Assembly: GCA_947477655.1 (NCBI GenBank)
Contig: CANJTS010000008.1
Coordinates: 53,929 to 117,928 of the forward strand
DNA length: 64,000 nucleotides
DNA from: Gammaproteobacteria bacterium
Lineage (GTDB): Bacteria > Pseudomonadota > Gammaproteobacteria > Pseudomonadales > Pseudohongiellaceae
Direction of reading: 5' to 3'
Shown here: positions 33,837 to 59,187 of the stretch, one piece after another
How positions within the stretch are numbered: position 1 is the first letter of the stretch
Layout of the letters: each line of letters opens with the position of its first letter
Made by a program: the position numbers and the translations under genes
The notes under the pieces: model-generated
What the model was told of the DNA's origin: nothing
Databases searched by the model: none
The model's input: the letters and a program-made list of their open reading frames with translations, nothing else

Positions 33837-34808
33837 TCATATACACTTATTAATCTCGACAGTAACGTGCACGAGTTCCTCGTGTACTTGCAGGGCCGAT
33901 CTGACGATATCGGGTGTTAAGTTGTGGTCATTGGTAACTACGACCAGTGCGACAGAATATGCACTCTTACCAACCCGCCAAACGTGTAAATCGGCAATGG
34001 TAGTGTCGAGGTCGGAAAAGTCTTTCAGTATAACTTCGCGGATCTCTGCAACTACGGCGTGATCCATTTCACGGTCCAGCAAAATTTTGCTTGTGTCGGC
34101 AATCAAACCACGTGACCAATTGATAACAAGGCCGGCACCAATGATGCCCATGATTGGATCAAGCCAAAGCCATCCATAGAGCCAACCGCCCACGAGAGCA
34201 AAAAGAGCCAATACAGAAGTAGCAGCATCTGCAATCACATGAACATAGGCGGACTTTAAATTCAAATCATGTTGGTTGTGATCGTGTTGATGATCGTGTT
34301 GATGATCGTGTTGATGATCGTGTTGATGATCGTTCGTGTGAGCGTGTTTGTGGTGCGCGCTACCTAGTATATAAGCGCACAAAATATTTACAGCCAAACC
34401 GAAGGTTGCTATGAACATTGCTTCCTGAAAGTGGATTGGCTGAGGAAAAAGTAGACGCTCAACAGAAATGACTACCATGACGATGGCTACGCATATCAAC
34501 AAAATAGCACTGGTATAGCCTGCAAGGATCTCAATTTTCCAGGTTCCAAACGCGAATCGAGAATCTCTTGCATAGTGACGCGCTGCTGCATATGCGAACG
34601 CGCTCAAGCCAAGCGCCAAGGCATGCGAACTCATATGCCAGCCATCTGCGAGTAGTGCCATGGAGTTGAACCACCAGCCGCCCACAATCTCGACCACCAT
34701 CATTGCGAGGGTGATCCACATCACAATTTTGGTCCCGCGTTCTGCCAGTTGATTACCGGAATCAAACACGTGTTCGTGCTGCCACCGAGTTAGGTCGTGA
34801 TTTTGCAT
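33837..34808 (-). CDS. Cation diffusion facilitator (CzcD/ZitB-like) divalent-metal efflux protein
   Basis: Six TM segments. HMSSHALALG and HVIADA motifs. His-rich cytoplasmic loop HHKHAHTNDHQHDHQHDHQHDHQHDHNQHD. C-terminal CDF dimerisation domain. Confidence 0.85.
   Translation of the reverse strand: MQNHDLTRWQHEHVFDSGNQLAERGTKIVMWITLAMMVVEIVGGWWFNSMALLADGWHMSSHALALGLSAFAYAAARHYARDSRFAFGTWKIEILAGYTSAILLICVAIVMVVISVERLLFPQPIHFQEAMFIATFGLAVNILCAYILGSAHHKHAHTNDHQHDHQHDHQHDHQHDHNQHDLNLKSAYVHVIADAATSVLALFALVGGWLYGWLWLDPIMGIIGAGLVINWSRGLIADTSKILLDREMDHAVVAEIREVILKDFSDLDTTIADLHVWRVGKSAYSVALVVVTNDHNLTPDIVRSALQVHEELVHVTVEINKCI
34279..34334. repeat. 12-nt tandem repeat (about 4.5 units) encoding the (DHQH)n loop of the CDF protein
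   Basis: The plus strand reads atcgtgttgatg four times, then atcgtt. In frame on the minus strand. Confidence 0.9.
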
Positions 34809-34963: not shown

Positions 34964-36613
34964 TTATTGAATGGTTGCGGGTGCAGACACATCCACAGGC
35001 TCTGGAATAACACAGTTGTCTACTTTTTTACATTCTTCGGCCAATAGTTCGCCGGTGGCTACCAAAGGCTCTGGACGTGCGCCCAAGTAAGCTGCTGGAA
35101 AGCGACCCATAGCCAAGTCGTAAGGCGTACGACCTGAAGTATCGACAACTTGTTGGACTGCACCGTTATCAATCAGAAATTTTACGATAAGGTTCCAGCC
35201 TTTTTTGGCCGCGGCATGTAAGGCAGTTTGGCCGTCGACCTGGCCAGCACCACGAATGGCAGGTTGCAGGCCGGCACCTCGTTCGTTATCACTGAGCTGA
35301 GTAATAGGGCGTTTAGCGGGATCACCCGTTATGGCATTTATGTTGGCACCATGTTCCAGCAGTATCTGCAAGGTCTCGATACTGGCTTCTTCAGTTTTAT
35401 AACGGCCACGGGTTGGAGCTGCTGACCAATCGATGCCGGCAACAATTAACAGAGGTGTGTGACCACGAGCATTGGGTAAGTCGACCAAGGCACCGTGTTC
35501 CAATAAAAGTTTTACTGAAGCAACATCGGCCGCGCGTGCTGCTCGAATCAAAGGGGTTGCACCCTCAGCCAAAGAATTATCTGAACCACGATCAAAGACA
35601 GCATTGCGATAAGGCGGACGTACTTTTAATTGCATGTTGGGGTTGGCGCCTCGTTCCAGCAACATTCTGGCAACATCTACACCGGTGTGTACATCTTCGG
35701 AAGGAATATCCGTGCGACCACCAACAGGAAGAGTGTTTAAATCTATGGCGTTATATAGCGGTGCGCGGCCAAAAATATCCCATTGATTAACGTCAGCACC
35801 CGCTTCGATCAAGGCCACGGCAGTATCAAAATGCAAATTTATCAAGGCCAGATTGAGTGCGGAAATACGGTCTGGATCAGTTGCGTTTAAGTCGGCACCC
35901 CCATTAGCAAGAATAGCCACACATGCAGTGCAACCTTGGCGGGCTGCGTAAAGCAAGGGCGAAAACCCACCTTTGTTCATGTCTTTCGGCCGCGGCTCTG
36001 ACAAGATGCGACGATCCCACAAACGTGCAGCACCGTGTTCGTTGACATCAGCACCATGGGCTAACAAGAGCTTCAGCATATCGGGTTGGCTTTGCGCTGC
36101 AGCCCACATCAAGGCGGACTGCCCACCCCAACTTTCTTTGGCATTTATAGCAGCGCCTTGCTCGAGCAACAGTTCAGCGGCAGGGAGGTTGCCGGAACGT
36201 GCGGCAATCATCAGGGCCGTTTCACCTTCTAGGTTGGCTTGATCTGGCAGTGCACCGTGTTCGAGCAACAGTTGCATGATTTCGATATTGCCTTGCATGG
36301 CAGCTTCCGCCATCGGTACAGCACCGTATTCGTTGCCGTGGTTGGCATCGGCACCGGCTGCCAATAACTGCTTAACAAGTTCAACATCGCCCGCGTAAAC
36401 AGCATATAACAAGGCAGAGGAACCATCACTTTGGGTGGCATTTACATCAGTGCCAGTGGCCAATAATGATAAGGCCTGCTCTCGATCACCTGAGCTGACA
36501 ATATCGGCGAGATTCTGCGCTTGTGTAGCGTTCGTGCTGGCGCAAAATAACAATCCTGCAGCTACCAGTTTAGTTGCCAGTAGTTTGAGAACTGCCCGAT
36601 TTATTGTTTTCAT
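34964..36613 (-). CDS. Periplasmic ankyrin-repeat protein
   Basis: Sec signal (..FCASTNATQA/QN) followed by more than ten ANK-type repeats (G.TALM.AA..G......LL..GAD.N). Confidence 0.85.
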   Translation of the reverse strand: MKTINRAVLKLLATKLVAAGLLFCASTNATQAQNLADIVSSGDREQALSLLATGTDVNATQSDGSSALLYAVYAGDVELVKQLLAAGADANHGNEYGAVPMAEAAMQGNIEIMQLLLEHGALPDQANLEGETALMIAARSGNLPAAELLLEQGAAINAKESWGGQSALMWAAAQSQPDMLKLLLAHGADVNEHGAARLWDRRILSEPRPKDMNKGGFSPLLYAARQGCTACVAILANGGADLNATDPDRISALNLALINLHFDTAVALIEAGADVNQWDIFGRAPLYNAIDLNTLPVGGRTDIPSEDVHTGVDVARMLLERGANPNMQLKVRPPYRNAVFDRGSDNSLAEGATPLIRAARAADVASVKLLLEHGALVDLPNARGHTPLLIVAGIDWSAAPTRGRYKTEEASIETLQILLEHGANINAITGDPAKRPITQLSDNERGAGLQPAIRGAGQVDGQTALHAAAKKGWNLIVKFLIDNGAVQQVVDTSGRTPYDLAMGRFPAAYLGARPEPLVATGELLAEECKKVDNCVIPEPVDVSAPATIQ

Positions 36614-36657
36614 ATTTACTCCAACGGTCTGTACGCTTTGTTGCTGCTGATTGCTGC

Positions 36658-37968
36658 TTACACTTCAGCAAATGCGCCGGTGCTGTCACCAAAAGATTCT
36701 TCGGCAATGCCAGCACGATTTAGCATGGTGAGCAGCAAGTTAGCTTGCGGCGTATCTTGGGGGTAAAGTAGATGTTGGCCGCCTTTTATTGTGCCAGCAC
36801 CGCGGCCAAAGATCGCGTTGGGCTGCGGATCGTGGTTATGTTTGTCGCTGTTACTCATGTTCGAACCAAATAGAATAATTGAGTTGTCGAGTACTGTGCT
36901 GTTGCCTTCTGGCATGGCGTCCAGTTTTTCGAGGAAATAATTGAAAACGCTGGTATGGAAAGCTTGTACTTTTGCCAGCCGGCCCATTTTTTCGGGATCA
37001 TCACCGTGGTGAGACAGCGGATGGAAAGCATCAGCCACACCGATATTAGTATAGGTACGCATACTGACTTCTTTTTCCATCATCATACTGGCGACATGGG
37101 TCAGATTGATCTGGTAAGACAGCGCAACTAAGTCGAACATGATTTTCAGATGATCTTCAAAGCTGGTGGGGATGCCAACCGGTGCATTAGGAATTTCGAC
37201 ATTACTCAAGTCCTGACTTTTCATCATCTGAACGCGGCGTTCAATTTCGCGCACTGATTCCAGATAGTCAGACACCATTGCCGTATCTGCTGCACCCAAT
37301 TTACGTTGCAAGGAAGAGGCATCACCCATGATGGAATCGAGAATACTACCGGTTTGATCAACGATTGCTGCGCGTTCTGCGGCATCATCGCCTTGGCCAA
37401 ACAACTGGAAAAACAGTTTGCGCGGGTTGGTTTCAATGGGCAGTGACTGTTGTGGGGTACGGAATGACAGGGAAGATCCAAAGGAACAGGAATAACCTGG
37501 TGCACAGGGGCCGCCATTGGGCGTGCCTACTTCGATGGAAGGGAAGGTAGTACCTTGACCAATATAACGTGCAGCGATTTGGTCGGCGGTGGTGCCTTTG
37601 CTCGGATCACTCACATCGTTGGGCGCAACGCAACGTAACCAGGTGCCGGCCACAATGCCGTGTGGGTCGTTGCTTTCAGCGGGTTTGTTGCGCAAGCCGG
37701 AAATAATAGTCATACGATCTTTGAATTTGGCTGCCGGCGCCAGAATTTCCGGTACTACAAAATCAGTACCAACAGTGGTGGGTGTCCACTTGCTCATTAC
37801 CGCGCCATGCGGAAAAAATACGAAACCCATTCGCGCTTGGGGATTGGCAGCAGTTTGTGCCCACGCAGTAGACGCAGGAATCATCGCGTCCAGCAGCGGC
37901 AAAGCCACTGAGCTACCCAAACCGCGTAGTACCATTCGACGTGATAAATGCTTTTTGGTGATAAACAT
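36658..37968 (-). CDS. DUF1552-family protein with twin-arginine signal
   Basis: MFITKKHLSRRMVLRGLGSSVALPLLDAM is the typical DUF1552 N-terminus. C-terminal ..FGSNMSNSDKHNHD.. metal-site-like motif. Confidence 0.75.
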   Translation of the reverse strand: MFITKKHLSRRMVLRGLGSSVALPLLDAMIPASTAWAQTAANPQARMGFVFFPHGAVMSKWTPTTVGTDFVVPEILAPAAKFKDRMTIISGLRNKPAESNDPHGIVAGTWLRCVAPNDVSDPSKGTTADQIAARYIGQGTTFPSIEVGTPNGGPCAPGYSCSFGSSLSFRTPQQSLPIETNPRKLFFQLFGQGDDAAERAAIVDQTGSILDSIMGDASSLQRKLGAADTAMVSDYLESVREIERRVQMMKSQDLSNVEIPNAPVGIPTSFEDHLKIMFDLVALSYQINLTHVASMMMEKEVSMRTYTNIGVADAFHPLSHHGDDPEKMGRLAKVQAFHTSVFNYFLEKLDAMPEGNSTVLDNSIILFGSNMSNSDKHNHDPQPNAIFGRGAGTIKGGQHLLYPQDTPQANLLLTMLNRAGIAEESFGDSTGAFAEV

Positions 37969-38000
37969 GGACTTTCTCCCTCGTGGGTAGTTGTGCGCAA

Positions 38001-40565
38001 TTATTTATGAAAAGTTATTTGTTGTGAGTTATTTGGGCTTGTGTTGTTTTGCACTACGGCATCAGTGTTGGCGACGCTGCTTAACTGTGGTGCTGTTTGT
38101 TTGCGGAACAAATCGCTGTTGATGATACCCATCACCAGTGTTGAAAAATGATAATCGTTAGTAGCGGCGGCGCGCACCACGCTGCGTAATACGGGCATGT
38201 CCCGTGCTTCCAGCGAGCGACCCAGCGCATAGATCATCAGTTTTTCAGTTAGCGCCTGCACAAACAAGTTGGGGCGTGCCATTAGTGCTGTCCTTAAATC
38301 TGCAGGGCCGTTTACCAGGCTGCCGTTGGGCATAACACCGGACGCATCCACCACTGTACCGGTCTGAATATCACGCTCGCGCCATTTGCCAGTGGCATCA
38401 AAATTATCCAGCGCAAAGCCGAGCGGATCCATTACAGCGTGGCAGGCATTACAGGTGGGATTGGAGCGGTGTTGTTCCAATCTTTCGCGTACCGTAGTTG
38501 CGATTTTGCCTGCTATATTTTCCCCCAAGACGGGTATATTGGGTGGCGGCACGGGCGGCGGACTGCCGATAATGGTTTCCAAAATCCAGGCTCCACGTAA
38601 CACCGGGCTGGTTCGGTTGGGATAAGCGGTTGCCATCAACACGCCACCTTTGCCCAGTAAGCCCCAGCGGTTGCTGTCGGTTAGTTCTACCCGCCGGAAG
38701 CGGTCCCCTTTTACCGTGGTGATGCCGTAGTGCAAGGCCAAACGTTCATTGAGGTATGAATAAGAGCCATCTAGCAAACGCATAACGTTTTGATCTTCGC
38801 GGAACACGCTGTCGATAAATAGAGCGATCTCCTGCACGAATTCACCCCGCAAATCACCGACACCCGAGGCGTAGGGAAAGAGGGTTTCATCCGGATTGAT
38901 CTCGTCAAGCTTGGCCAGTTTGAGCCACTGGGCAGCAAAGTTTTCCGCCAGAGCACTGGCGCGTGGATCGGCCAGCATGCGGGTAACTTGGGCTTCGAGC
39001 ACTGCCGGATCCTGCAGTTGATCGGTTATGGCGAGTTCCAGTAAGGTAGGATCCGGCACGCTGCTCCACAGGAAAAACGACAAACGTGAGGCCAAGTCCA
39101 CACTGCTTAATTGATAGACAGTACCTGGACTCAGGTCGGTGGGTGCAAGTTCGGCACGGTACAGGAAGTTAGGGCTGGCTAGCGTACGGGTAAGGGCACG
39201 GCGAATGCCTTCTTCAAACCCGCCTAGTTCTTGACCACTTCGATAAAAACTCAACAACGGAGCCATATCTTCAGTAGTGACAGGCCGGCGATACGCGGCG
39301 GTGGCAAACTCTTGAATAATTTGCGCGGCACAGTCGGCTTCCTGGCTGCTGGCATCCGGATAGCACGAAAAAAGCACGTTGCGCGTAGGTGTTGTGCTCA
39401 TGCCAGTGACGGTATATGGACCGCGTACTTCTAGTGATGGTATGGAGAGGATGCGATCCTGTACCGCGCCGGGTACAAAATGCTGCAAAGTGTCATCGGA
39501 TTCAGCAAAACTACGCCGTACAAAACTGATGCCGACTTTATGAGGGCCGGCTGTTGTGGTGAAACGAATGTCTTTGGTGCGAGCATTAATTTCATCAAGT
39601 GGGCCACTCTGTACTAAATCAAGAGACTTACGGTCAGCATCACCTCCTAAAATGGTTTCGTACACTTTGACACCATCGATGGTAACCAGCATCTTATTTT
39701 CAAATTCAATGTTATACATCCATAACGATAAATTGAAATCACCTGCACTGACTGCGTATTCTCCGTCGGCCGGAAACCAGTGTTCTATCAACATACCACC
39801 CCGAGTTCCAAGCGGTAGACCATCGATATGAAATTGTTGTGAGCCACCGCCCGTGGCGCGCGCAGGTAATATTTCGGGTGCTTGATATACAGTGCTGCCG
39901 AGGGAGGGGGTCGGATCACCCACGGCTTGTTCCGCAATAATACGTGCTGCAGAAACATACTGATTTATAAACGCAGGCGAGACTTGCAGTGCTTCGGCAA
40001 TATTATCGAACCCGTCGCTGGTGTCGTCTTCGGGCAGGATGTCGGTGGGGTCAATTTCTAGACCCAATAAATCACGAATGGCGTTAGCATATTCTTTACG
40101 GTTGAGGCGGTGAATGGCGACATGGCCAGGATCGGTTTGTTGCAGGCCTGCGGAATCCAGATAAGTTTCCAGCCAGTCTACGAAAGCAAAGGTGGTGGTT
40201 TCGTCCGGACGGATATCCTGATTAGGGGGTGGCATCATGCCGCCGCGTAACTTTTTCAGGACTTTTTCGAACAATGCTGGATCGTTGGCAACATCAAGCG
40301 GGCTGAGGCCGGTAAAATCGACACCGCCGGAAAAGTCGTCGGCGTTATGGCATTTGGTGCAATATTGTTCAAACAGCGGCCAGAATTGTTCGGCTTGCTG
40401 TAAGGAAAGTGCGGAGGTTGTCGCAGCACTTGGCTGAGCTTGTACAACAGCAGCATTAAACGCAGCCCCAGAAAAAGCAGCAAGAGCAAACATAACGCTG
40501 GGAAATATTTGTTTGCGGTGTTGAAGCTTGCCAAGGCCAGAATGTAGAAAAGTTTTGTTACGCAT
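38001..40565 (-). CDS. DUF1592/DUF1595/DUF1588/DUF1587/DUF1585-type multidomain exported protein with two CXXCH motifs
   Basis: Signal peptide. CTKCH at 40347-40361 and CNACH at 38439-38453 (..HRSNPTCNACHAVMDPLGF is the DUF1585-type C-terminal signature). 854 aa. 32-nt gap to the DUF1552 gene. Confidence 0.75.
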   Translation of the reverse strand: MRNKTFLHSGLGKLQHRKQIFPSVMFALAAFSGAAFNAAVVQAQPSAATTSALSLQQAEQFWPLFEQYCTKCHNADDFSGGVDFTGLSPLDVANDPALFEKVLKKLRGGMMPPPNQDIRPDETTTFAFVDWLETYLDSAGLQQTDPGHVAIHRLNRKEYANAIRDLLGLEIDPTDILPEDDTSDGFDNIAEALQVSPAFINQYVSAARIIAEQAVGDPTPSLGSTVYQAPEILPARATGGGSQQFHIDGLPLGTRGGMLIEHWFPADGEYAVSAGDFNLSLWMYNIEFENKMLVTIDGVKVYETILGGDADRKSLDLVQSGPLDEINARTKDIRFTTTAGPHKVGISFVRRSFAESDDTLQHFVPGAVQDRILSIPSLEVRGPYTVTGMSTTPTRNVLFSCYPDASSQEADCAAQIIQEFATAAYRRPVTTEDMAPLLSFYRSGQELGGFEEGIRRALTRTLASPNFLYRAELAPTDLSPGTVYQLSSVDLASRLSFFLWSSVPDPTLLELAITDQLQDPAVLEAQVTRMLADPRASALAENFAAQWLKLAKLDEINPDETLFPYASGVGDLRGEFVQEIALFIDSVFREDQNVMRLLDGSYSYLNERLALHYGITTVKGDRFRRVELTDSNRWGLLGKGGVLMATAYPNRTSPVLRGAWILETIIGSPPPVPPPNIPVLGENIAGKIATTVRERLEQHRSNPTCNACHAVMDPLGFALDNFDATGKWRERDIQTGTVVDASGVMPNGSLVNGPADLRTALMARPNLFVQALTEKLMIYALGRSLEARDMPVLRSVVRAAATNDYHFSTLVMGIINSDLFRKQTAPQLSSVANTDAVVQNNTSPNNSQQITFHK

Positions 40566-40678
40566 GATGCTTACCCATCAATCTATTACAGCTATATTCA
40601 TTAAATTTTTTTTGTATGAGACCGGATTTAACCAGCCTGTCGCTGCAGTTCGTTAAATAAAGTCTGTACAGATAATTT

Positions 40679-41602
40679 TCAGGCATCTGGTGTGTAATGC
40701 GGAATCAGACTCCAGTGGGACAGTTCGATAAACATATCCGAAGCTCCCAATTGCCCCTCAAATGTGCCTGCAGGTTTGGCTGCCAAGGTTTCGGGCACAT
40801 TACTCGCCTGCATGAATAACTCACGCACACTGGCAAAAATCTGGGCATACATATCACGCATGACCACCAGTTGCGCTTTGGTCATTACGGGGCCGGTCGC
40901 AGGTACGATAATAGTGCTGTCGTTGGCAATGCTGAGGAGGGTTTCTATGCCGTCTACCAAGCCACCTATCCATCCACCCGTCCACCAGTCCATCAATGGC
41001 CAAGCATCAGTGGAAATAATACCGCCAGTGTGCAACACGTTGTCGGTCGGCAAAAAAATGTACATGTCGCCATCTGTATGAGCTTGACGCATATAACCGT
41101 ATTCAACCACATCATTACCATGAGGCATGTTGCCGTAGTGATAAAAAATTTCTGTGGGTAAGGCTTGTGCAGGAAGGGGTTCGAAAATGACATCTTCCCA
41201 GGGCCGTTCGATACTTGTGCCCAACCATTGGCGAGTATTTTCATGCGCAAAAATTTTAGTATCACGATTGCCTAGTTCTTCATTCAAACCGGTTTGTTCG
41301 CGATGCCAGTGGGTGTTGATCAAAGTAGATATGCGGCGACTATCGAGTGTGCGTTCAATAGTGCTTCTTAGCGCAGCAGCGTTGGCTTGCAACCCACCAT
41401 CCACTACCAGTAATTCGCTGTTGGCAGCTTTTTTTACTAAAACATTGCAACCACTGCCAGTAATTAAAGCAGTAGTTGAATTGATGCTCTGCACCGCTAG
41501 ATTGGTGTTTTGCGCCAATAGTTTTTGATTCAAACCTTGGCTCAATACCAAAGTAGCACTAGCACTCATGGAGAATTGCAGTAAATTTCTACGGTTAATC
41601 AT
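40679..41602 (-). CDS. MBL-fold protein with twin-arginine signal and a variant metal motif
   Basis: MINRRNLLQFSMSASATLVLS. The MBL motif position reads THWHREQTG instead of HxHxDH. Later candidate ligand positions are FAHENT, HTDGD and LHTGG. Confidence 0.7.
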   Translation of the reverse strand: MINRRNLLQFSMSASATLVLSQGLNQKLLAQNTNLAVQSINSTTALITGSGCNVLVKKAANSELLVVDGGLQANAAALRSTIERTLDSRRISTLINTHWHREQTGLNEELGNRDTKIFAHENTRQWLGTSIERPWEDVIFEPLPAQALPTEIFYHYGNMPHGNDVVEYGYMRQAHTDGDMYIFLPTDNVLHTGGIISTDAWPLMDWWTGGWIGGLVDGIETLLSIANDSTIIVPATGPVMTKAQLVVMRDMYAQIFASVRELFMQASNVPETLAAKPAGTFEGQLGASDMFIELSHWSLIPHYTPDA

Positions 41603-47083: not shown

Positions 47084-47959
47084 CTAAATATTTCCAAACC
47101 CGTACAAACGATGCGGATTGTCCACCAGCAGTTTTTGCTGCAACTGGGCAGTTTCAGCCATCAGTGGGATGAGATCCACCAAATCACCATCATTGGGCAT
47201 ATGTTCTTTAATGTTTGGATGGGGCCAATCTGTACCCCAGAGCACACGATCCGGTGCTAGCTGGATCAGTGCTTTGGCAAAAGGTATGGCATCAGTAAAA
47301 GGCGGGCCTGCCGAAGAGATGCGTTCGGCCCCACATACTTTCACCCAGCAATTATCGCGTTTGGCAAATTCGAGCAAAATCTTAAAAGGTTGTTGCTCAA
47401 GGCCGTCTTTGGTTGGCACACGGCCCATATGATCAATTACGTAAGGGATGGGCAAGTTATCAAGCAGGTCTTTATGAGCGACCAGGTCAATGGCATCAAA
47501 ATGCATGACGACATGCCATTTAAATTGTTTGATACGATTTACGATGAGATGAAACTCATTCATGTCGGGCACACCACCCAGATGTTTAACAAAATTAAAG
47601 CGGCAACCCCGAATACCTTTGCTATCGAGATCAGCAATCGCTTTTTCATCGAAAGTACTATCGATATTAGCGACACCCCGAAAGGTGCCGCCACTGGCAG
47701 CAATGGCATCAATAATGGGAGAGTTGTTTACGCCATGACAGCTGGCATTAACCAGTACGGCGCGACTAAGCCCCAGCTTTTTTTGCAAGGCAATGAAAAG
47801 GTCGACACCGGCATCCGGCGGTGTATAAGTTCGATCAGCAGCAAAGGGATATTGGGCTGCGGGACCAAAAATATGACAATGCGCATCAGTGGCATTACGC
47901 GGTAATTTAAATGAGGGAGTTTTAGTGTTAGGGTCTGGAGCCCGGCAAGGTTTTGTCAT
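47084..47959 (-). CDS. Amidohydrolase-2 family (LigI / 2-pyrone-4,6-dicarboxylate hydrolase-like)
   Basis: DAHCHIFGP.., ..IDHMGRV.., ..WGTDWPHP motifs. Intact paralogue of the TAG-interrupted gene at 25675-26487. Confidence 0.75.
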
Positions 47960-49757: not shown

Positions 49758-50564
49758 ATGAAACTTTCGTCAGCGATGTTGTCTTTGTTAATCATTGGTT
49801 GTTTAGCAATTAGCAATGGCTGCAGTGATTCTACAGATACCAGCACCGCGCTAATCGACCCAGTCGACAATGCCCGCATAACAGCCATGCGTACTCAATT
49901 AAAAACCCTAAAACTAGAGGCTCAGCGTGTCTTTGATTCCAACTCGATCAAACGTTTGCAGCGTGCCTACGGTTATTATGTTGAAGAAGCTTTGTGGGAT
50001 GAAGTCGTCAATCTTTTTGCAGATAACGCTACTTTAGAGATGGCTAGGGATGGTGTTTACATAGGCAAGGATCGTATTCGTGCTTATTTTTATGCGCTCA
50101 ATGACGGTCAGCAGGGTTTACATACAGGTCAACTTAATGAGCAGTTGCAACTGATGCCTGTGGTGACACTGAGTGCAGATGGTTTGACCGCAAAAGCACG
50201 CTGGCGCAATCTTATGTTACGTGGCCAGTTGGGTGAAAATGCTTATTGGGGCGAAGGTCCGTTTGAAAACGAGTATGTAAAAGAAAATGGCATATGGAAA
50301 TTCAGCAAGGTGCGTTGGCAACAAGCAGTTTTGGTGTCTTATGCAGGAGGTTGGGCAAAAAATAAAGATGCCAACAATGGTATCTGGGTGTCCGATACTT
50401 TGCCCGCAGATGCGCCTCCTACTGATGATCACGGTGCTTGGCCCCAAACTTATTTGCCGCCTTTCTCCTTTGCCAATCCAGTGGGAACCTATTTACCCGC
50501 TGCAGCGTTAAATGCCGAGCCTGCAACCACAGCTGTTGGAGCAACTACAGGAGCACCGCAATAA
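49758..50564 (+). CDS. Lipoprotein with one SnoaL/NTF2-like module
   Basis: Lipobox AISNGC. Module ..RLQRAYGYYVEE.LWDEV..LFADNATLE.. ending in ..YLPPFSFANPVG. Confidence 0.7.
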   Translation: MKLSSAMLSLLIIGCLAISNGCSDSTDTSTALIDPVDNARITAMRTQLKTLKLEAQRVFDSNSIKRLQRAYGYYVEEALWDEVVNLFADNATLEMARDGVYIGKDRIRAYFYALNDGQQGLHTGQLNEQLQLMPVVTLSADGLTAKARWRNLMLRGQLGENAYWGEGPFENEYVKENGIWKFSKVRWQQAVLVSYAGGWAKNKDANNGIWVSDTLPADAPPTDDHGAWPQTYLPPFSFANPVGTYLPAAALNAEPATTAVGATTGAPQ

Positions 50565-51928
50565 TGCATATTGCAAACTTCACTGCTTTAATCACGCGCC
50601 TGCCCTTAATCGTTGTTACTGTTTTTCTGACACTAGTGCATGCGTCTGTATTAGCGCAGCAACCATCACCAGAATTAGAACAAATGGCTGCAGAAATAGC
50701 GCAGTTGCAAGCCGATATTGCCAACATGGAAGCGGAAAACACCATTGAAAATCTACAAGGGATTTTTGGTTTTTACATCGACAAGAATCAGTGGTCACAA
50801 GCTGCAGACTTATTTGCTGATGACGGCACTGTTGAAATCAGTGGTGAAGGTGTTTATGTGGGAAAAGCGCACATAACGCAGTATTTCGAGAGTAAAGGCA
50901 GTGCGGGTCCGCAACCAGGAATACTAAATGAGCACATGCAATTACAACCCGTTATTACGGTGTATACCGGTGGCACCGCCAAAGGCCGCTGGCATCATTT
51001 TTCCCAGGAGGCAGTAGCCGGCGTCAGTCATCATTGGGGCACGGGTATTTATGAAAATGAATATGTATTGCAGAATGGTGTTTGGAAAATCAGCAAGCTC
51101 CATCTGTATTCCTCGATGCGCACACCGTATGACGCTGGTTGGGGTGTTACTGCTTTACCAGTCACCACACCTAGTGCAACCTTACCACCTGATCTGCCGC
51201 CCACCATTGTCTATGAAAATTATCCAGCCGTTTTCGTGCCGCCTTTCCATTATGAAAATCCTGTCACCGGTGCTGTGACCTCAACAGACATAGCTACAGA
51301 AACTCAGCAGTTCAATACTCTGGATGCCATGGAACTGGCATTAGTAAATGCGCAAACACGTGTAGGCCTGTTAACGGATGCCGATGCAGTAGAACGATTG
51401 CATACCATCTATGGCTATTACCTGGCTCACAACCAGTGGGATGAACTGGCTGGTATTTTTACTGAAGATGGCAGTATCGAAATTGCGCTGCGGGGAATTT
51501 ACTTGGGCCGTGCCGGGGTGCGACGCAATTTGGATTTATATGGTGTCCAAAGTGAACTTGAAGGCACGTTACACAACCATATGCAATATCAGCCGGTAAT
51601 TCATATAGCCGCCGATGGCCAAAGCGCCTTGATGCGTTCAAGAGCTTTCAGCATGATGGGAAATTACGAAGGTGTGGGGCGCTGGATGGGCGGCATCTAT
51701 GAGAATAAATTTGTGAAACGCGATGGCATATGGCAAATAGAAAAGGACCAGGTCATCAACACTTATTTTGCAGTTTACGATGAAGGCTGGAAAGATCTTG
51801 CACTACGTCCCGCACCAGGAATTAATGCTGCCAATCCGCCCGATGCGCCACCCAGTGTATATTTTGAAATGTATCCAAGTGCTTATTTACCGGCCTATCA
51901 CTACAAAAATCCGGTAACAGGATTATAA
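50564..51928 (+). CDS. Secreted protein with two tandem SnoaL/NTF2-like modules
   Basis: The ATG overlaps the upstream stop (TAATG). Signal peptide ..HASVLA/QQ. Two modules end in VFVPPFHYENPVTG and YLPAYHYKNPVTG. Confidence 0.7.
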   Translation: MHIANFTALITRLPLIVVTVFLTLVHASVLAQQPSPELEQMAAEIAQLQADIANMEAENTIENLQGIFGFYIDKNQWSQAADLFADDGTVEISGEGVYVGKAHITQYFESKGSAGPQPGILNEHMQLQPVITVYTGGTAKGRWHHFSQEAVAGVSHHWGTGIYENEYVLQNGVWKISKLHLYSSMRTPYDAGWGVTALPVTTPSATLPPDLPPTIVYENYPAVFVPPFHYENPVTGAVTSTDIATETQQFNTLDAMELALVNAQTRVGLLTDADAVERLHTIYGYYLAHNQWDELAGIFTEDGSIEIALRGIYLGRAGVRRNLDLYGVQSELEGTLHNHMQYQPVIHIAADGQSALMRSRAFSMMGNYEGVGRWMGGIYENKFVKRDGIWQIEKDQVINTYFAVYDEGWKDLALRPAPGINAANPPDAPPSVYFEMYPSAYLPAYHYKNPVTGL

Positions 51929-54449: not shown

Positions 54450-54681
54450 GCGCAGATGCTTGGTTTTAAAAAGTCTGACATCACCCATACAAGGCATTCT
54501 TATTTGCTGTTTTATGTAAGAAATATGGAACATTTAATTGCATTAGTGCTTGACGGTATTTTTGCACACAAGCAGATGTTACTGTCTGATAAGCATTTTA
54601 TATTATGAAATGCCCAGTAATAAAATAACGCTACTAAACAAATGCAGACTGCGGCTCTTAACTGAAAAAGGGGGATATGTA

Positions 54682-57600
54682 ATGTATGCAACTAGGAACA
54701 AAAAAATAAAAGTAGGTCGTGTTTTTCCAAGTTCGGCGCTAACCGCTGTAATTGCTAGCATAACGGCTAGCACAGTGATGGCGGCGCAGCTTGAAGAGAT
54801 AACCGTTACTGGCTCGCGTATCCAACGCGATGTGGGCTTCGAGTCCGCTGCGCCAATCACGGCGCTGTTGTCGGCAGAGCTAACTTTGTTTGAACCCGGC
54901 TTGGGTGTTTCTCAACAATTGGCTAATTTGCCCCAGTTTTTCAACAACGTCAGCTCCGATGATATTGCCGGTCGGGTCGGGGGCGATGTTGGTCAGAGCC
55001 AGCTCAACATGCGCGGCATGGGCGGAGAGCGCACCTTGGTACTGCTGGATGGTATGCGCGTAGTGCCTTCCGACAGTCGCAGTTCAGTGTCAGTCGATTA
55101 TCTCCCTAGTCCGCTAATTCAGCGCACCGATATCGTCACTGGCGGCGCGTCTGCGGCCTATGGTTCCGGCGCCCTGACAGGCGTGACTAATTTTGTTATC
55201 AACCGTCAGTTTACCGGTCTCAAGATCACTGCCCGCGGTGGTATCAACGAATTTAACGGTGATGGTCAGAACACACGCTTTACTGCGGCCTGGGGTCGTG
55301 ACTTTTTAGAGGGCGACCGGCTTCATTTGGTAGGATCACTAGAGATTAGAAATAACCGTGAATTCCGTCGGGCTAGGCCCGATGCGTTTGAATTGGACTG
55401 GGATAAATTTTCAGGCTATGTGACCAACCCCGCATGGGTGGCATGGCGAGCAGCTACCCCGGCCAGTGTACTGGCAAGCGCGGCCCCTGTGCCGTTGCGG
55501 CTTTCTGCACAGGGTATAACCTCCACCTCATGGACCGCGACCGGCCTCATCCGTCAGGCCGGATTCTCCTTAGACCGTTACTCGTTCACCGAAGCCGGTA
55601 CTGGTGTTCAGCCGTTCCAGACCCAGAACTGCGATCTCGTTTCTCTACCCAGCGCCTCAGGCTCACAGTCGAACATGGCATGTAATGACTCTTCCTATCA
55701 GTACCAATTGTTCCGAAAAGGCCGTTACATTGAAGACAGAGTGCGCCTCGGGGTTGCCTTGCAAACCGGTTTTCTAGGAGCGGATTTTCAGCTTACAGAC
55801 ACCACCAAACTGTGGGGTCATGTGCTGTATGGTCGCACTATGAATTCTTCTCCACCGACCCAGACCGGTCAGCATGAGGGCATATCCTACGAGACCGTCT
55901 TTTCAGGCAACCCTTATCTGCCGGCAGTTGTGCAGCAAGCTATGACCACCGAGAAGCGCACCAGTATCCGTGTAGACCAGAACGGTTTTTCGGATATTCC
56001 TTGGGGCTTCCAAGAACGCCCAGTGGTTACCAATTACATGTATTCCGTGACCGGGGGCTTCGACACCCAGTTGTGGGGCGATTGGAATATGAAAGGCTCG
56101 CTTACTTCGGGCTATGCCAACAAACACAGCGTGCTCAACAATTGGGAACGCAACGACCGTTTCTTTATGGCGCATGACGCGGTGAAGGATCCGGAGACCG
56201 GCAACATCGTATGTCGGATTCAAACTATCGCCCGTGATTTCCAGCGCAAAGGCCGCAATCTGGAAGCTGAACTAAATGCTTGGGCTCAAAAAAATACTTC
56301 GGTCTATCCTACCGAAGGGTTAAATCCCTACGAGAAAGCCATCCCACTGAAATATCCTTTCGCAGTGGACAGCATCGACGGCACTATTAAGGATTGTGTG
56401 CCAGTGAATATGTTCGGTAAGGGCAATCAGTCCGAAGCAGCCATGCGGTATATATTCTCGGGCCGCAACAAGACTGCTAATTCCACGCAAAAGCAAGATT
56501 TCGCCGAGATTGTAGCCAACGGTACTGTTTACGAAAATTGGGGTCCTGGTGCGATTTCAGGTGCTATTGGCGCCAACTATCGCAAAGAATCCATTTCCCA
56601 AATTGTGCTTGATCCAGATATCGATACTCTTGGGCCACCCTATAACGTGACATTGCCTGACGGCACTGTGGTGATGCGCGGCATTCCCCCACAAATACAA
56701 ACCGGTAGCGCCAACCTGCACCGTTTCAGTAGCCAGCCATCTTACGGTGGCGGCTTCGATGTTACAGAGATGTTTGCCGAAACAATCGTGCCGTTGTTTG
56801 ATTCAGTCGATGGGCCGCAGTATGCCGAACTCAACCTAGCTGCTCGCCATGCCGACTACTCGCGCGCTGGTAAGGTGTGGGTATGGAAGGCGGGCCTGAG
56901 TTTCCAGGTGCTGGAAGACCTGCGTCTGCGCGGTACTTATTCCCACGATATGCGCGAGGGTTCATTTCGCGAACTCTTCACACAACAAGGTGGCGGTGGT
57001 ACTCCTACAGATCCGGAGCCAACCAAAGAGACTCCCACCGGCCCGGCGGTTACCAATAGATCGTACCTAATCTCCAGCCTTGCTGGCGGCAATCCAGACA
57101 TCGCGCCTGAGCAAGCCGATACTACTGCGATGGGTTTTGTCTATCAGCCGTCCTTCATCGACGGACTTCAGTTGTCACTGGACCGCTATGTAGTGAAGTT
57201 GGATCCATCTATCGTGCAATACACGGTGCAACAAATCGTTGATCAGTGCTTTCAATCCAAAATATATTGTGACCGCATCGACCGTGATCCGGTTACCAAT
57301 CAAATTGGGATGATCAGAAATCTCTTCGTTAACTCAGATAAGGCTAGGGTTAGCGGCTGGGATACAGAAATATCCTATCGCATGGAACCTGACTTTCTTG
57401 CCAACCAGGCTGAATCAATGAATCTACGACTAGTGGGCGGTTTAATGGATGAAAATTCCATTACCCCAAAAGGCGGTATCACGATCGAGCGCGCTGGCCA
57501 GTCAGACATGCCAAAAGAAATGGTGACCATCATGGGTGCCTATAATTTTGGCGACTATGGCGTTAATTTGGTACAGACCTGGGCCGGTAAGTCCAAAAGA

Positions 57601-57828
57601 AACAACACTTGGGTAGAAGGGGTTGATGTGGATAGCAACAATGTCCCTTCTTGGCATAACACCAACTTGGGTTTTTCCTGGAATGTAGAGTCAGAATTAC
57701 TTGGCTTCTGGTCGGCGTCCTTCAATGTCACCAATGTGTTCAACCGGGGTGCGATACAACGCGGCAGCACCACTTCGGGAGACGAAGTTGGGCGGCGCTA
57801 TTCGTTGGGGTTCGAAACTTCTTTTTAA
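54682..57828 (+). CDS. TonB-dependent receptor
   Basis: AAGGGGG Shine-Dalgarno sequence. Signal peptide ..STVMA/AQLEEITVTGSRI and plug motifs (R.DIV.GGASA.YGS.A..GV.N). About 1048 aa. Terminal ..YSLGFETSF. Confidence 0.9.
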   Translation: MYATRNKKIKVGRVFPSSALTAVIASITASTVMAAQLEEITVTGSRIQRDVGFESAAPITALLSAELTLFEPGLGVSQQLANLPQFFNNVSSDDIAGRVGGDVGQSQLNMRGMGGERTLVLLDGMRVVPSDSRSSVSVDYLPSPLIQRTDIVTGGASAAYGSGALTGVTNFVINRQFTGLKITARGGINEFNGDGQNTRFTAAWGRDFLEGDRLHLVGSLEIRNNREFRRARPDAFELDWDKFSGYVTNPAWVAWRAATPASVLASAAPVPLRLSAQGITSTSWTATGLIRQAGFSLDRYSFTEAGTGVQPFQTQNCDLVSLPSASGSQSNMACNDSSYQYQLFRKGRYIEDRVRLGVALQTGFLGADFQLTDTTKLWGHVLYGRTMNSSPPTQTGQHEGISYETVFSGNPYLPAVVQQAMTTEKRTSIRVDQNGFSDIPWGFQERPVVTNYMYSVTGGFDTQLWGDWNMKGSLTSGYANKHSVLNNWERNDRFFMAHDAVKDPETGNIVCRIQTIARDFQRKGRNLEAELNAWAQKNTSVYPTEGLNPYEKAIPLKYPFAVDSIDGTIKDCVPVNMFGKGNQSEAAMRYIFSGRNKTANSTQKQDFAEIVANGTVYENWGPGAISGAIGANYRKESISQIVLDPDIDTLGPPYNVTLPDGTVVMRGIPPQIQTGSANLHRFSSQPSYGGGFDVTEMFAETIVPLFDSVDGPQYAELNLAARHADYSRAGKVWVWKAGLSFQVLEDLRLRGTYSHDMREGSFRELFTQQGGGGTPTDPEPTKETPTGPAVTNRSYLISSLAGGNPDIAPEQADTTAMGFVYQPSFIDGLQLSLDRYVVKLDPSIVQYTVQQIVDQCFQSKIYCDRIDRDPVTNQIGMIRNLFVNSDKARVSGWDTEISYRMEPDFLANQAESMNLRLVGGLMDENSITPKGGITIERAGQSDMPKEMVTIMGAYNFGDYGVNLVQTWAGKSKRNNTWVEGVDVDSNNVPSWHNTNLGFSWNVESELLGFWSASFNVTNVFNRGAIQRGSTTSGDEVGRRYSLGFETSF

Positions 57829-58021: not shown

Positions 58022-59155
58022 ATGAAAAAGCAATATATACAATGCCGCCTTATTACAGTAACGGCAGTTCTGGCAGCGTTTTACGCGCCCTACGTTTTGG
58101 CACATCATCCCGTATCAGCCAAGTTCGACACGACACAGTCGGTAACACTCACCGGTCGCGTGACGGAAGTCGACTGGGCCAATCCCCACACCCACATTTT
58201 CATGAGCGTGGAAGACAAATCCGGCGCCGTCAAGAACTGGGCAATCGAACTGGAAAGTCCTATCGAACTCGAGTGGGGCGGTTGGCGACCAGACACACTT
58301 GCCATAGGCGCTGTGATCACGGTTGAAGGGCCATTAGCCCGCAATGGCACTGGGCAGATCTGGGCCAACAGCATCATCAAGGAAGACGGCAACAGCGTGT
58401 TCGATCTGCCCGATAACATTCTTGAATCGCAATTGGGATCTCGCGTGGAAGGTCCCGCGCCGCGCTGGCCCGACGGTCATCCCCGGCTTGGTTCAGAACC
58501 TGGGCAAAGCGGCTATTGGTCCGTGCCGAGCCAACATTCGCTTGTGGAAAGCGGGGTGAGTGTGGCGATGGACAAGCATGGCATCCTCGCCAATATCGAA
58601 GATGCTGCAAGTGTTGCTCCTTTCCAAGACTGGGCACGCGATCTTTACGTTATACGCCAGCAGAATTTCATGAAAGATGATCCTCTGTTTCTTTACTGCA
58701 TCCCACCCGGTGGACCACGCATGTTCCAGGTTCCGTACGGTGTGCAGTTTCTCGAGCAGCCCATCCATCAGCGCGTCACCGTGCTAATGGGCGGTGGCAA
58801 CAGTAACTGGCGTTTGATCCACCTGGATGGCCGCGAGCAGATAGGCCAGGTGACTGGCAACGACAACAATCCGCTTTTTTTTGGCCGTGGCCTAGGTCGT
58901 TGGGAAGGAGACAGCTTTGTGGTGGACAGCAACGGCTTCAACGAAAGCTTTTGGTTTTCCAACGGTGGCCTACCACATACCAGTCAGTTGCACTTGATAG
59001 AACGCTTCACACGTGTTGACCTCAACACGCTGCAGTACGAAGTGACAATTGATGATCCCGGGGCCTACACCCGCGAATGGAAAAGTGCATGGACATTACT
59101 CTGGGTGGCGAACAAAGACCTGCCGGATCATTATTGCCAGGATAACCGCCCCTGA
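58022..59155 (+). CDS. Secreted two-domain protein, paralogue 2 (DUF6152-like N-domain plus conserved C-domain), function unknown
   Basis: Signal peptide with predicted cleavage VLA/HHPVSAKFD (His codons at 58103-58108). W.NPH motif. C-domain ..YCIPPGGPR..GRWEGDSFVVDSNGF..GLPHTSQLHLIERFTR..IDDPGAYT..W...YCQDN. Confidence 0.8.
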   Translation: MKKQYIQCRLITVTAVLAAFYAPYVLAHHPVSAKFDTTQSVTLTGRVTEVDWANPHTHIFMSVEDKSGAVKNWAIELESPIELEWGGWRPDTLAIGAVITVEGPLARNGTGQIWANSIIKEDGNSVFDLPDNILESQLGSRVEGPAPRWPDGHPRLGSEPGQSGYWSVPSQHSLVESGVSVAMDKHGILANIEDAASVAPFQDWARDLYVIRQQNFMKDDPLFLYCIPPGGPRMFQVPYGVQFLEQPIHQRVTVLMGGGNSNWRLIHLDGREQIGQVTGNDNNPLFFGRGLGRWEGDSFVVDSNGFNESFWFSNGGLPHTSQLHLIERFTRVDLNTLQYEVTIDDPGAYTREWKSAWTLLWVANKDLPDHYCQDNRP

Positions 59156-59187
59156 TTCACGCTGACCCTACTATGAGTGAACATCCA

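Follow-up and report, generated by a model that had tools for sequence, protein, structure and literature searches.

The locus raised the question of whether four adjacent genes, each predicted to encode an exported protein, make up one functional unit, and what that unit might do. They lie at 34964-41602 of the window (the whole 64,000-nucleotide stretch of DNA that was analysed), which comes from a Pseudohongiellaceae MAG of the order Pseudomonadales (NCBI taxonomy); placement in the Cellvibrionales was without support. In the ORF listing all four genes were on the minus strand in the order metallo-beta-lactamase fold (MBL), DUF1592-type, DUF1552 and ankyrin (ANK).

40679-41602, minus strand, predicted Tat-exported MBL-fold hydrolase, 307 aa (Pfam Lactamase_B, 30.6 bits against 22.7)
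40566-40678, minus strand, MBL-DUF1592 intergenic gap, 113 nt, terminator-like site not found
38001-40565, minus strand, predicted Sec-exported, two-haem DUF1592-type protein, 854 aa (Pfam)
36658-37968, minus strand, predicted Tat-exported DUF1552/HXXSHH protein, 436 aa (Pfam, 258.7 bits against a cut-off of 30)
34964-36613, minus strand, predicted Sec-exported ankyrin-repeat protein, 549 aa (Pfam Ank families)

From these ORF coordinates the spacings are 113, 32 and 44 nt, the values claimed in a preliminary description of the locus. A scan of the three gaps detected no terminator-like sites, but as promoter and terminator counts for the region equalled the shuffled expectation, this absence carries no weight. 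Shine-Dalgarno-like sequences preceded the start codons of DUF1552 (GAGGGAG) and ANK (GGAG). The preliminary description had also given all four products an export signal, and reading by eye agreed, with two twin-arginine and two Sec-type leaders. Among homologs the Tat-type RR motif was present in 53/63 MBL, 77/79 DUF1552, 11/74 DUF1592 and 9/67 ANK proteins, making DUF1552 and MBL the only two of the four with conserved Tat motifs; the N-termini of ANK and DUF1592, in the window and in homologs, were judged by reading to be Sec-like signal peptides. A Pfam scan placed the central proteins in the DUF1592/1587/1588/1585/1595 and DUF1552 families to which they had been provisionally assigned.

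Conservation of the gene set was assessed across 81 related loci with DUF1552 identities of 44-81%; by record title these came from Gammaproteobacteria (about 46), Acidobacteriota (about 22), Alphaproteobacteria (4) and an Acidimicrobiia MAG (1). All four genes were present in 43 of the 54 loci with enough flank, and the counts for individual partners were ANK 66/73, DUF1592 64/69 and MBL 48/54. The order DUF1592, DUF1552, ANK was fixed, with median gaps of 23 nt between the first two and 8 nt between the last two and with frequent overlaps. The MBL gene was mobile, lying upstream on the same strand (31), upstream on the opposite strand (6), after ANK (16), between DUF1552 and ANK (6) or directly after DUF1552 where ANK was missing (6), and has been retained in at least five arrangements. 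From locus to locus, the identity of DUF1552 to its window counterpart co-varied with that of ANK (r=0.76) and of MBL (0.68). The four-gene module is real and has stayed intact in two bacterial phyla or more. DUF1552 occurred without DUF1592 in a few lineages (loci L007, L008, L011, L039 and L072), and therefore the haem partner is not strictly obligatory.

Our best explanation, to which we give a probability of roughly 0.55, is that the products of the four genes form a single conserved module in the periplasm, a haem-wired metalloenzyme complex with an ankyrin subunit dedicated to it and a SoxH-like hydrolase as accessory. We infer the mechanism and, from gene order only, the complex itself. 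DUF1552 would be the catalytic subunit, a sulfatase fold with replacements at the formylglycine nucleophile and at the beta1 aspartates, and with a metal centre built from five family-wide invariant His residues together with Asp, Gln and Ser. Loading would take place in the cytoplasm, with Tat then exporting the folded protein. The DUF1592 protein would be docked on DUF1552, its jelly-roll segment may bind ligand or substrate, and its two c-type haems would pass electrons between the DUF1552 centre and periplasmic carriers, either cytochromes or the PQQ dehydrogenases encoded near the module in part of the loci. The ANK protein could serve as a stoichiometric scaffold or assembly subunit, by analogy with AnkB for the catalase KatB, and the SoxH-like MBL may hydrolyse a product or precursor of the same pathway. 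The module can now be described as defined parts that are open to testing.

The predicted catalytic subunit carries the following features.

37936-37941, minus strand, RR of the twin-arginine motif LSRRMVLRG of DUF1552
37660-37662, minus strand, H103 of DUF1552
37006-37023, minus strand, HPLSHH of DUF1552
36838-36840, minus strand, H377 of DUF1552
36772-36774, minus strand, H399 of DUF1552

The AlphaFold2 model of DUF1552 (pLDDT 85, pTM 0.83) was searched with Foldseek, and the top matches were all sulfatases, LtaS or phosphonate monoester hydrolases (E 8e-6 to 1e-3, probability 1.0, TM about 0.4, identity about 10%). An alkaline-phosphatase/sulfatase fold is thus predicted from one model, whose core matches type I sulfatases and other members of the superfamily such as human steroid sulfatase (1p49), choline sulfatase (6fny) and LtaS (2w5q). 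At the sequence level nothing linked DUF1552 to other families of the alkaline-phosphatase clan. R10 and R11 were invariant, and thirteen further residues were invariant in 154 DUF1552 sequences of two clades (H103, D129, Q130, S144, S208, D211, D228, E243, H316, S319, H320, H377 and H399). The C/S-x-P-x-R formylglycine motif of the sulfatases is absent, and the invariant His103 appears to occupy the nucleophile position, which is our own reading of motif spacing rather than a computed alignment; by the same reading the family consensus has an L-T-G-like motif at the sulfatase spacing after this residue. At the end of strand beta1 lies P-[HN]-G in place of the metal-binding D-D of sulfatases, and residues 196-286 form a long helical insertion that sulfatases lack. 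The phosphatase/sulfatase-like site first proposed for this protein is therefore consistent with the predicted fold, but the site itself is non-canonical, with an invariant His, P-H-G at beta1 and no clan match. DUF1552 further differs from the superfamily in its cytochrome partner, and we know of no characterised alkaline-phosphatase-superfamily member that is paired with a cytochrome. A redox role for DUF1552 would be unprecedented, because to our knowledge no enzyme of the superfamily is redox.

The proposed electron-transfer partner is built as follows.

about 40434-40565, minus strand, signal peptide of the 854-aa protein
about 40146-40427, minus strand, cytochrome c domain
40347-40361, minus strand, CTKCH in the cytochrome c domain
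40227-40235, minus strand, M111-P-P in the cytochrome c domain
39921-40109, minus strand, PSD3 (Pfam)
about 39396-39908, minus strand, jelly-roll segment (Foldseek local matches)
39150-39332, minus strand, PSD5 (Pfam)
38721-39110, minus strand, PSD4 (Pfam)
38370-38669, minus strand, PSCyt3 (Pfam)
38439-38453, minus strand, CNACH within PSCyt3
38106-38324, minus strand, PSD2 (Pfam)

All five Pfam domains listed scored far over their gathering scores, and PSCyt2 was sub-threshold (17.3 bits against 29.8). The coordinates given earlier for the two CXXCH motifs were exact, and the count was exactly two in 59 of 59 full-length homologs. C69, C72, H73, M111, P112, P113, C401, C412, C705, C708 and H709 were invariant in 53 DUF1592-type sequences. 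The AlphaFold2 model (pLDDT 80) had no PDB relative with E<0.001 by Foldseek, only local jelly-roll matches of the CBM35/CBM6/C1q type.

These data bear on a purely hydrolytic alternative, in which DUF1552, as a diverged hydrolase of the sulfatase/phosphatase type, would attack a polymer or metabolite ester, the DUF1592 protein would bind substrate or sense, with structural or regulatory haems, and MBL would be a second hydrolase in this pathway. All structural neighbours of DUF1552 are alkaline-phosphatase-superfamily hydrolases or transferases, the MBL fold is typically hydrolytic, and the jelly-roll segment resembles carbohydrate-binding modules, which occur on some family members elsewhere (He et al. 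2017, PMC5615132), including a CBM2-DUF1592 protein of a Cellvibrio lignocellulose secretome (PMC6004670). However, a His in place of Cys, Ser or Thr at the nucleophile position and the absent beta1 metal-binding Asp do not fit such an enzyme, two invariant CXXCH motifs and a conserved Met ligand in all homologs argue for functional haems, and no glycoside hydrolase or other CAZyme genes recurred in the 81 loci. We consider this explanation doubtful.

The MBL protein has the following motifs.

41588-41593, minus strand, RR motif of MBL, within MINRRNLL
41294-41311, minus strand, motif 2, HWHREQ
41066-41080, minus strand, HTDGD
40988-40990, minus strand, D205

Its assignment to the MBL fold was borne out by Pfam Lactamase_B, but alignment to BcII revealed neither the canonical HxHxDH nor the fifth-motif His. 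Across 61 homologs conservation was H98 50/61, H100 53/61, H175 57/61 and D205 60/61, with E or D at 102 and Q or H at 103, giving a motif 2 consensus of HWHx[ED][QH]; one motif-2 His was missing in 8-11 of the 61 and the fifth-motif His was not conserved. Matches to NCBIfam were all weak and far under cut-off (subclass B1, 44.9 against 200; SoxH_rel_PQQ_2, 38.3 against 280). SoxH and the SoxH-related zinc metallohydrolases (TIGR04559, 'quinoprotein relay system') share the MBL fold, SoxH itself has a Tat leader, and the SoxH-related model scored best apart from beta-lactamases (E 1e-9). At 38.3 bits the window MBL is nonetheless not a member of that family, from which its motif 2 and lack of a conserved fifth-motif His also set it apart.

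By analogy the module might instead be a Sox-like thiol-carrier relay, with the haem protein oxidatively attaching substrate to a Cys (cf. SoxAX), the sulfatase-fold protein hydrolysing it off (cf. SoxB), the ANK CxxC as carrier or redox site and MBL as the SoxH counterpart. The parts run parallel (a c-type cytochrome, a hydrolase fold, a Tat-exported MBL with a SoxH-related model as its closest non-lactamase match, and C228/C231 of ANK, the only conserved free Cys pair of the module), and as in the NCBIfam system PQQ dehydrogenases are nearby: PQQ propeller genes, in some cases as fusions to cytochrome c, were found in 22 of 81 loci (27%, a partial association), 9 of them at a distance of no more than 600 nt from the module. 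We nevertheless judge such a relay improbable, as no module protein matched a Sox model, no SoxYZ-like carrier gene was seen here, the SoxH-related score is far too low, the simplest reading of a periplasmic CxxC is a structural disulfide, and the hosts (by record title) are ordinary aerobic heterotrophs and not known sulfur oxidisers.

The Cys pair lies in the ankyrin-repeat protein.

35921-35932, minus strand, conserved C228-x-x-C231 of ANK

It was kept in 61 of 64 ANK homologs; full-length homologs were 35-71% identical over about 450-540 aa, with signal peptides throughout (read by eye). The precedent given in the preliminary description is genuine: optimal KatB activity needs AnkB, encoded in the P. 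aeruginosa katB-ankB operon (Howell et al. 2000, cited in PMC12754779). AnkB and the ANK protein are alike in being exported, in having ankyrin repeats and in sharing an operon with a haem-containing, periplasm-related enzyme. Unlike AnkB, which is 183 aa long, the ANK protein is about three times larger, bears the conserved CxxC and is encoded alongside a sulfatase-fold protein and a c-type cytochrome rather than a catalase. The precedent, together with the two predicted haems and the enrichment of PSCyt genes in oxic lake layers (PMC5615132), would also suit a defence against peroxide or oxidative stress, with the two-haem protein as a periplasmic peroxidase (cf. di-haem cytochrome c peroxidases) that ANK supports as AnkB does KatB. 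This is very improbable, since the haem protein resembles neither cytochrome c peroxidases nor catalases in sequence or fold, ANK is coupled to DUF1552 and not to the haem gene, the invariant DUF1552 centre and MBL are left unexplained, and no OxyR-/PerR-type regulator or peroxiredoxin was seen among recurrent neighbours.

Inherited synteny with no functional link, making ANK and MBL mere neighbours in one lineage, is scarcely tenable and is contradicted by the comparative data. Close relatives (74-78% identity) do have the window's MFS and ABC transporter genes beside the module as well, and to that extent the conservation reflects synteny alone. But the four genes stay together in different phyla and among other flanking genes (the Haliea locus L001 versus the window, for example), the MBL gene is retained despite several rearrangements, ANK overlaps or abuts DUF1552, and the sister subfamily has neither ANK nor MBL.

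The central pair resembles the PSCyt3/PSD (DUF1585/1587/1588/1592/1595) plus HXXSHH (DUF1552) pair in domain architecture, adjacency and order (cytochrome first), and shares with it the DUF1552 Tat leader, the two CXXCH motifs and the family-wide invariant DUF1552 residues. A second pair, PSCyt1/DUF1549/DUF1553 plus DUF1501, likewise joins a large multidomain c-type cytochrome to a Tat-exported alkaline-phosphatase-clan protein, from Pfam families different from those of the window. The definition of the former came from Rhodopirellula baltica, and its presence in Verrucomicrobia has been noted (He et al. 2017); the latter is a parallel uncharacterised pair (PMC5615132). In agreement with the earlier claim that the DUF1592-DUF1552 pair has no assigned function, our literature search found no paper assigning one. 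In a distant DUF1552 subfamily DUF1592 was always there, whereas ANK was found in 0/43 loci (Fisher p=8e-25) and MBL in 0/17 (p=1e-11), with no conserved downstream gene. The co-occurrence of ANK and MBL genes with DUF1592-DUF1552 pairs thus held across phyla and despite rearrangement, but in one clade of the much larger family, to which these partners are specific, and not for the pairs generally. What is new over the known uncharacterised pair is the addition, in this clade, of a tightly coupled downstream periplasmic ankyrin gene and a mobile but retained MBL gene. Hosts of the window's clade were mainly Gammaproteobacteria and Acidobacteriota, whereas those of the known pair are Planctomycetes or Verrucomicrobia.

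The module comprises four minus-strand ORFs separated by gaps of 113, 32 and 44 nt. Both coordinates and gaps agreed with the preliminary description, whose observation was thereby confirmed. In the deposited annotation the four products follow one another as MFN0003283-86 and bear only generic names.

40679-41602, minus strand: MBL-fold protein (MBL), 307 aa
38001-40565, minus strand: DUF1592-type protein, 854 aa
36658-37968, minus strand: DUF1552 protein, 436 aa
34964-36613, minus strand: ankyrin protein (ANK), 549 aa

The two central proteins had been assigned to the DUF1592-group and DUF1552 families, and Pfam HMMs placed both there above their cut-offs; NCBIfam gave no models for either. 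The upstream flank of the module holds a divergent aromatic-acid-type MFS transporter, and downstream come genes for a CDF transporter of the DmeF type and for ABC-2 transporters. The DmeF-type gene (Co/Ni CDF efflux transporter, 33837-34808, same strand, scoring 367.6 bits in NCBIfam, where the cut-off is 250) lies directly downstream of the ANK gene and encodes a long His-rich loop, HKHAHTNDHQHDHQHDHQHDHQHDH; this neighbour was not kept in related loci. A promoter and terminator scan returned counts equal to the shuffled expectation, carrying no information either way.

Homologs of the DUF1552 protein with 74-97% identity were common in marine Gammaproteobacteria, and Haliea sp. AH-315-K21 (possibly an isolate, to judge by its strain-style name) carried relatives of all four genes, ordered as in the window, between unrelated flanking genes. 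A genome scan using one genome per species and a 12-sequence alignment yielded 80 loci at 44-78% identity. By record label, a few of which may reflect MAG binning errors, these belonged to Gammaproteobacteria (Steroidobacteraceae, Pseudohongiellaceae and others), Acidobacteriota (Bryobacteraceae, Vicinamibacterales, Solibacteraceae), Alphaproteobacteria and one Acidimicrobiia MAG. Neighbours were counted using tblastn with the window proteins; a simple ORF caller gave spurious clusters of antisense ORFs in high-GC loci. Full-length relatives of all four proteins were found in 43/54 loci with enough flank, strongly confirming the proposed co-occurrence of ANK and MBL genes with the DUF1592-DUF1552 pair in related genomes. 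ANK followed DUF1552 in 66/73 loci, DUF1592 preceded it in 64/69 and MBL was present in 48/54. The order DUF1592, DUF1552, ANK was constant among the compared loci, with median gaps of 23 nt (DUF1592-DUF1552) and 8 nt (DUF1552-ANK), and these short gaps together with many overlaps of 1-4 nt suggest translational coupling. Identities to the window proteins co-varied among loci (r=0.76 for DUF1552 versus ANK). The MBL gene occupied several positions.

Placement of the MBL gene relative to the other module genes
Upstream, same strand: 31 loci
Upstream, opposite strand: 6 loci
After ANK: 16 loci
Between DUF1552 and ANK: 6 loci
Directly after DUF1552, in loci without ANK: 6 loci

A distantly related subfamily of DUF1552 served as specificity control; its 80 metagenome loci encode proteins 32-42% identical to that of the window. 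A DUF1592-type gene lay upstream wherever the contig allowed, and an ANK relative was found in 0/43 control loci that had 1.7 kb or more downstream and an MBL relative in 0/17 with room on both sides (Fisher test, module clade versus control, p=8e-25 for ANK and 1e-11 for MBL). The control subfamily had no conserved downstream genes. Within the module clade the ANK partner persisted down to 40% DUF1552 identity in two related loci, L087 (8357-9724) and L088 (2435-3790), where direct hmmscan detected strong ankyrin-repeat proteins (E 1e-62). The empty precomputed Pfam annotation of these proteins was not evidence of absence, and an end of the triad at about 44% identity was rejected on the direct scan of the third gene of L087. 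The most divergent ANK-bearing loci (L069, L073, L079, L083 and L084) were without MBL. The control and these divergent loci indicate that the cytochrome-DUF1552 core is family-wide, ANK clade-specific and MBL slightly narrower.

DUF1552 occurred without DUF1592 in five loci, L007 (Candidatus Eutrophocola salsuginis), L008, L011, L039 and L072, and a search for a substitute in the last three found nothing consistent. The arrangement in L007 (8829-12974, L004 contig) and L008 (2230-5069, Pseudomonadales MAG) was MBL, about 245 nt, then DUF1552. The ANK gene of L004/L007 was split into two overlapping ORFs, which may be due to decay, to a frameshift or to an error of long-read assembly. Where MBL is absent, the long ANK ORFs contained no ANK-MBL fusions. 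One of these ORFs, in L069 (6702-9053, Bryobacteraceae), is 783 aa from a script-chosen start that may be over-extended, and carries C-terminal to its repeats a DUF4214 match (E 2e-14) and a weak BACON match (E 2e-4, below gathering score).

The 854-aa protein, whose gene adjoins that of the DUF1552 protein across the 32-nt gap, contained five Pfam domains, each well above its gathering score, in the order PSD3/DUF1587, PSD5/DUF1595, PSD4/DUF1592, PSCyt3/DUF1588 and PSD2/DUF1585 (82.7, 74.0, 136.9, 114.7 and 77.1 bits). Its two described CXXCH motifs were present as CTKCH (40347-40361) and CNACH (38439-38453), and exactly two occurred in 59/59 full-length homologs. CNACH is invariant and lies inside PSCyt3 (residues 705-709). 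CTKCH lies in a putative N-terminal class I c-type cytochrome domain that was borderline in Pfam (PSCyt1 22.5 bits against 22, Cytochrome_CBB3 26.2 against 27) and also has an invariant M111-P-P, likely the distal ligand of haem 1. Both CXXCH motifs, M111-P-P and C401/C412 were invariant among homologs. The AlphaFold2 model (pLDDT 80) had no global PDB relative in Foldseek; a beta-rich stretch at about residues 220-390 matched CBM35, CBM6 and C1q-type jelly rolls (probability 0.98-0.99, TM to target about 0.5).

The DUF1552 protein matched DUF1552/HXXSHH (PF07586) over residues 46-342 with 258.7 bits against a cut-off of 30. In 154 sequences from the module clade and the control subfamily, 17 residues were invariant (R10, R11, P53, G55, H103, D129, Q130, S144, S208, D211, D228, E243, H316, S319, H320, H377 and H399), with H316, S319 and H320 lying in the HPLSHH motif (residues 316-321). 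None of the core residues differed between the clades, and the family as a whole therefore probably shares one chemistry. The AlphaFold2 model (pLDDT 85, pTM 0.83) was compared with the PDB using Foldseek and every top match belonged to the alkaline-phosphatase superfamily, including steroid, carrageenan, chondroitin and choline sulfatases, LtaS and phosphonate monoester hydrolases (E from 8e-6, probability 1.0, TM about 0.4, identity about 10%). The core alpha/beta fold is therefore predicted to be that of the alkaline-phosphatase/type I sulfatase superfamily. Searches with single sequences and profiles gave no meaningful sequence link to PDB chains for either the DUF1552 or the DUF1592-type protein, and when 55 DUF1552 members were scanned with Pfam at E<=10, none matched Sulfatase, DUF1501, Phosphodiest or any other clan family, the sole recurrent match being TAT_signal.

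We read the sulfatase signature C-x-P-x-R-x3-L-T-G against the secondary structure of the model. The CxPxR formylglycine motif is absent and its position appears to hold the invariant His103, which begins the helix after the second core strand, with W-L-T-G at sulfatase spacing in the family consensus. This location and spacing would put H103 in the position of the formylglycine nucleophile. The metal-binding Asp pair (D-D) at the end of strand beta1 is also absent; beta1 (residues 46-51) is followed by F-P-H-G, with P53 and G55 invariant and H or N at position 54. Members of the alkaline-phosphatase/type I sulfatase superfamily use formylglycine made from C/S-x-P-x-R, or a Ser/Thr nucleophile, at the N-terminus of the helix after strand beta2, where DUF1552 appears to have His103. 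Of the sulfatase- or phosphatase-like character attributed to this protein in the preliminary description, the fold stood in the predicted model but the canonical nucleophile and the beta1 Asp did not.

Export signals fitted the two Tat and two Sec leaders described for the window. R10 and R11 of DUF1552 were invariant in the homologue alignment, and a Tat-type RR motif was found in 77/79 DUF1552 and 53/63 MBL homologs and was scarce elsewhere (11/74 DUF1592, 9/67 ANK). Read by eye, the ANK and DUF1592 N-termini of the window and its relatives look like Sec signal peptides. Sec for a haem c protein and Tat for metal-enzyme folds is the expected pattern.

The MBL protein scored 30.6 bits against 22.7 for Pfam Lactamase_B. 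Aligned to BcII it retained the Zn1 ligands H98, H100 and H175, with D120 replaced by Glu and the equivalents of Cys221 and His263 missing. Set against the five canonical metal-binding motifs of the fold (D, HxHxDH, H, D/C, H), it has D68, H98-W-H100-R-E102-Q103, H175 and D205, with T236 at the fifth-motif His. In 61 homologs H-W-H-x-[E/D]-[Q/H], H175 and D205 were kept and the fifth-motif His was not conserved; position 102 was E in 34 and D in 22, and position 103 Q in 35 and H in 19. A subclass B1/B2 resistance beta-lactamase was rejected on the missing Cys221 and His263 equivalents and a score far below the NCBIfam equivalog cut-off (44.9 bits against 200), and membership of SoxH-related TIGR04559 (quinoprotein relay system) on 38.3 bits against 280. 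By its motifs the protein looks like a diverged hydrolase, probably metal-binding, and not a resistance enzyme. The 549-aa protein consists of ankyrin repeats (Pfam Ank families), and its homologs were conserved over their full length and carried signal peptides. A C-x-x-C motif in one of the repeats (C228/C231, 35921-35932, 'AARxGCxxC') was present in 61/64 members where ankyrin repeats usually show G-H-x-x-x-V; its role could be structural, as a disulfide, or that of a redox or metal site.

From the conservation, gene order, motifs and predicted folds we infer a plausible functional interpretation. The DUF1592-type protein, DUF1552 and ANK would form a periplasmic complex in which DUF1552, assembled in the cytoplasm and then exported by Tat, provides a metal centre rich in His on its sulfatase scaffold. 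Through its two c-type haems the DUF1592-type protein would link this centre to electron carriers of the periplasm and through its jelly-roll segment bind ligand, and the loosely linked SoxH-like MBL may process a product or precursor. ANK would act in stoichiometric amounts as scaffold or assembly factor, a role like that of AnkB for KatB. We put the probability of the specific combination, a redox metal centre in which His replaces formylglycine, a docked subunit whose two haems supply or remove electrons, and ANK holding the complex together, at roughly one in four.

The closest rival is a purely hydrolytic enzyme with non-catalytic haems; it is consistent with the predicted sulfatase-type fold and sits less easily with the apparently lost canonical nucleophile and the two CXXCH motifs of every full-length homolog, and we consider it unlikely. 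A Sox-like relay in which the ANK CxxC serves as the thiol site is improbable; the motif is nearly universal in the family, and the SoxH-related score of MBL is low. The literature on SoxH with MBL held nothing useful. Peroxide defence takes its appeal from AnkB, which supports the haem catalase KatB (Howell et al. 2000, cited in PMC12754779), a precedent the preliminary description had invoked and which this source bears out. Like AnkB, the window ANK is exported, has ankyrin repeats and shares an operon with a two-haem protein; unlike AnkB, it has no catalase partner, none being encoded in the window region or among the genes that recur nearby, and this reading is doubtful in the extreme. 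Mere synteny is effectively excluded, since retention of MBL through rearrangement is strong evidence for a functional link rather than inherited gene order.

The cytochrome-DUF1552 pairing itself is already known and uncharacterised (He et al.). The literature covered, which took in few subscription journals, gave no function for DUF1552, DUF1592, PSCyt, HXXSHH or the parallel DUF1501/1549/1553 pair, in keeping with the earlier statement that the pair has no published functional assignment. Within the same scope ankyrin or MBL partners of the pair were unmentioned, which fits the suggestion that the four-gene combination is undescribed. The novelty here therefore lies in a clade that has two further conserved partners, ANK and MBL. 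The DUF1592-DUF1552 pair is among the largest sets of exported proteins without known function (DUF1552, 15,467 50%-identity clusters at E<=0.001), and the family is abundant in Planctomycetes, Verrucomicrobia, Acidobacteria and marine Gammaproteobacteria. The two partners narrow the hypotheses and offer handles for pull-downs, co-expression and genetics, and Haliea sp. AH-315-K21 and Pseudohongiellaceae carriers are expected to be easier to handle than Planctomycetes. Few bacterial systems are known to have a dedicated periplasmic ankyrin subunit, and a second haem-coupled case would extend the AnkB-KatB precedent. If the redox reading were true, the His-for-formylglycine centre would be new chemistry for the alkaline-phosphatase superfamily, the module would represent a new class of periplasmic oxidoreductase, and the PSCyt/PSD-DUF1552 family (>15,000 50%-identity clusters) would gain its first biochemical role.

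Other genes recurred near the module. PQQ beta-propeller proteins were found in 22/81 loci, nine of them within 600 nt, and some bear an N-terminal cytochrome c domain. A DUF6152 protein with a domain of about 250 aa of no known family was found in some 22 loci, frequently as the gene just upstream of MBL, and TonB-dependent receptors in about 10. The window has the same families in a separate cluster 13-20 kb from the module, and in many other genomes relatives of them directly adjoin the module.

54550-57828: TonB-dependent receptor
58022-59155: DUF6152-domain fusion protein
59173-60057: 294-aa protein, paralogous, no family match
60233-62404, minus strand: PQQ quinohaemoprotein, alcohol-dehydrogenase-like

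These partial associations hint at a periplasmic oxidative context and not at further parts of the module. Three further observations were made. A DUF1552 gene in L085 (7001-8329, 33% identical to the window protein) stood alone without a DUF1592 partner among phage- or mobile-element-like neighbours (GIY-YIG/NUMOD3, N6/N4 methylase, IS1595 transposase and many small ORFs). In the window, two adjacent overlapping ORFs of 268 and 496 aa (49758-51928) gave no NCBIfam match and by eye share repeated blocks. The window also encodes an amidohydrolase (47084-47959) closest to 4-sulfomuconolactone hydrolase, at 273 bits against a cut-off of 500.
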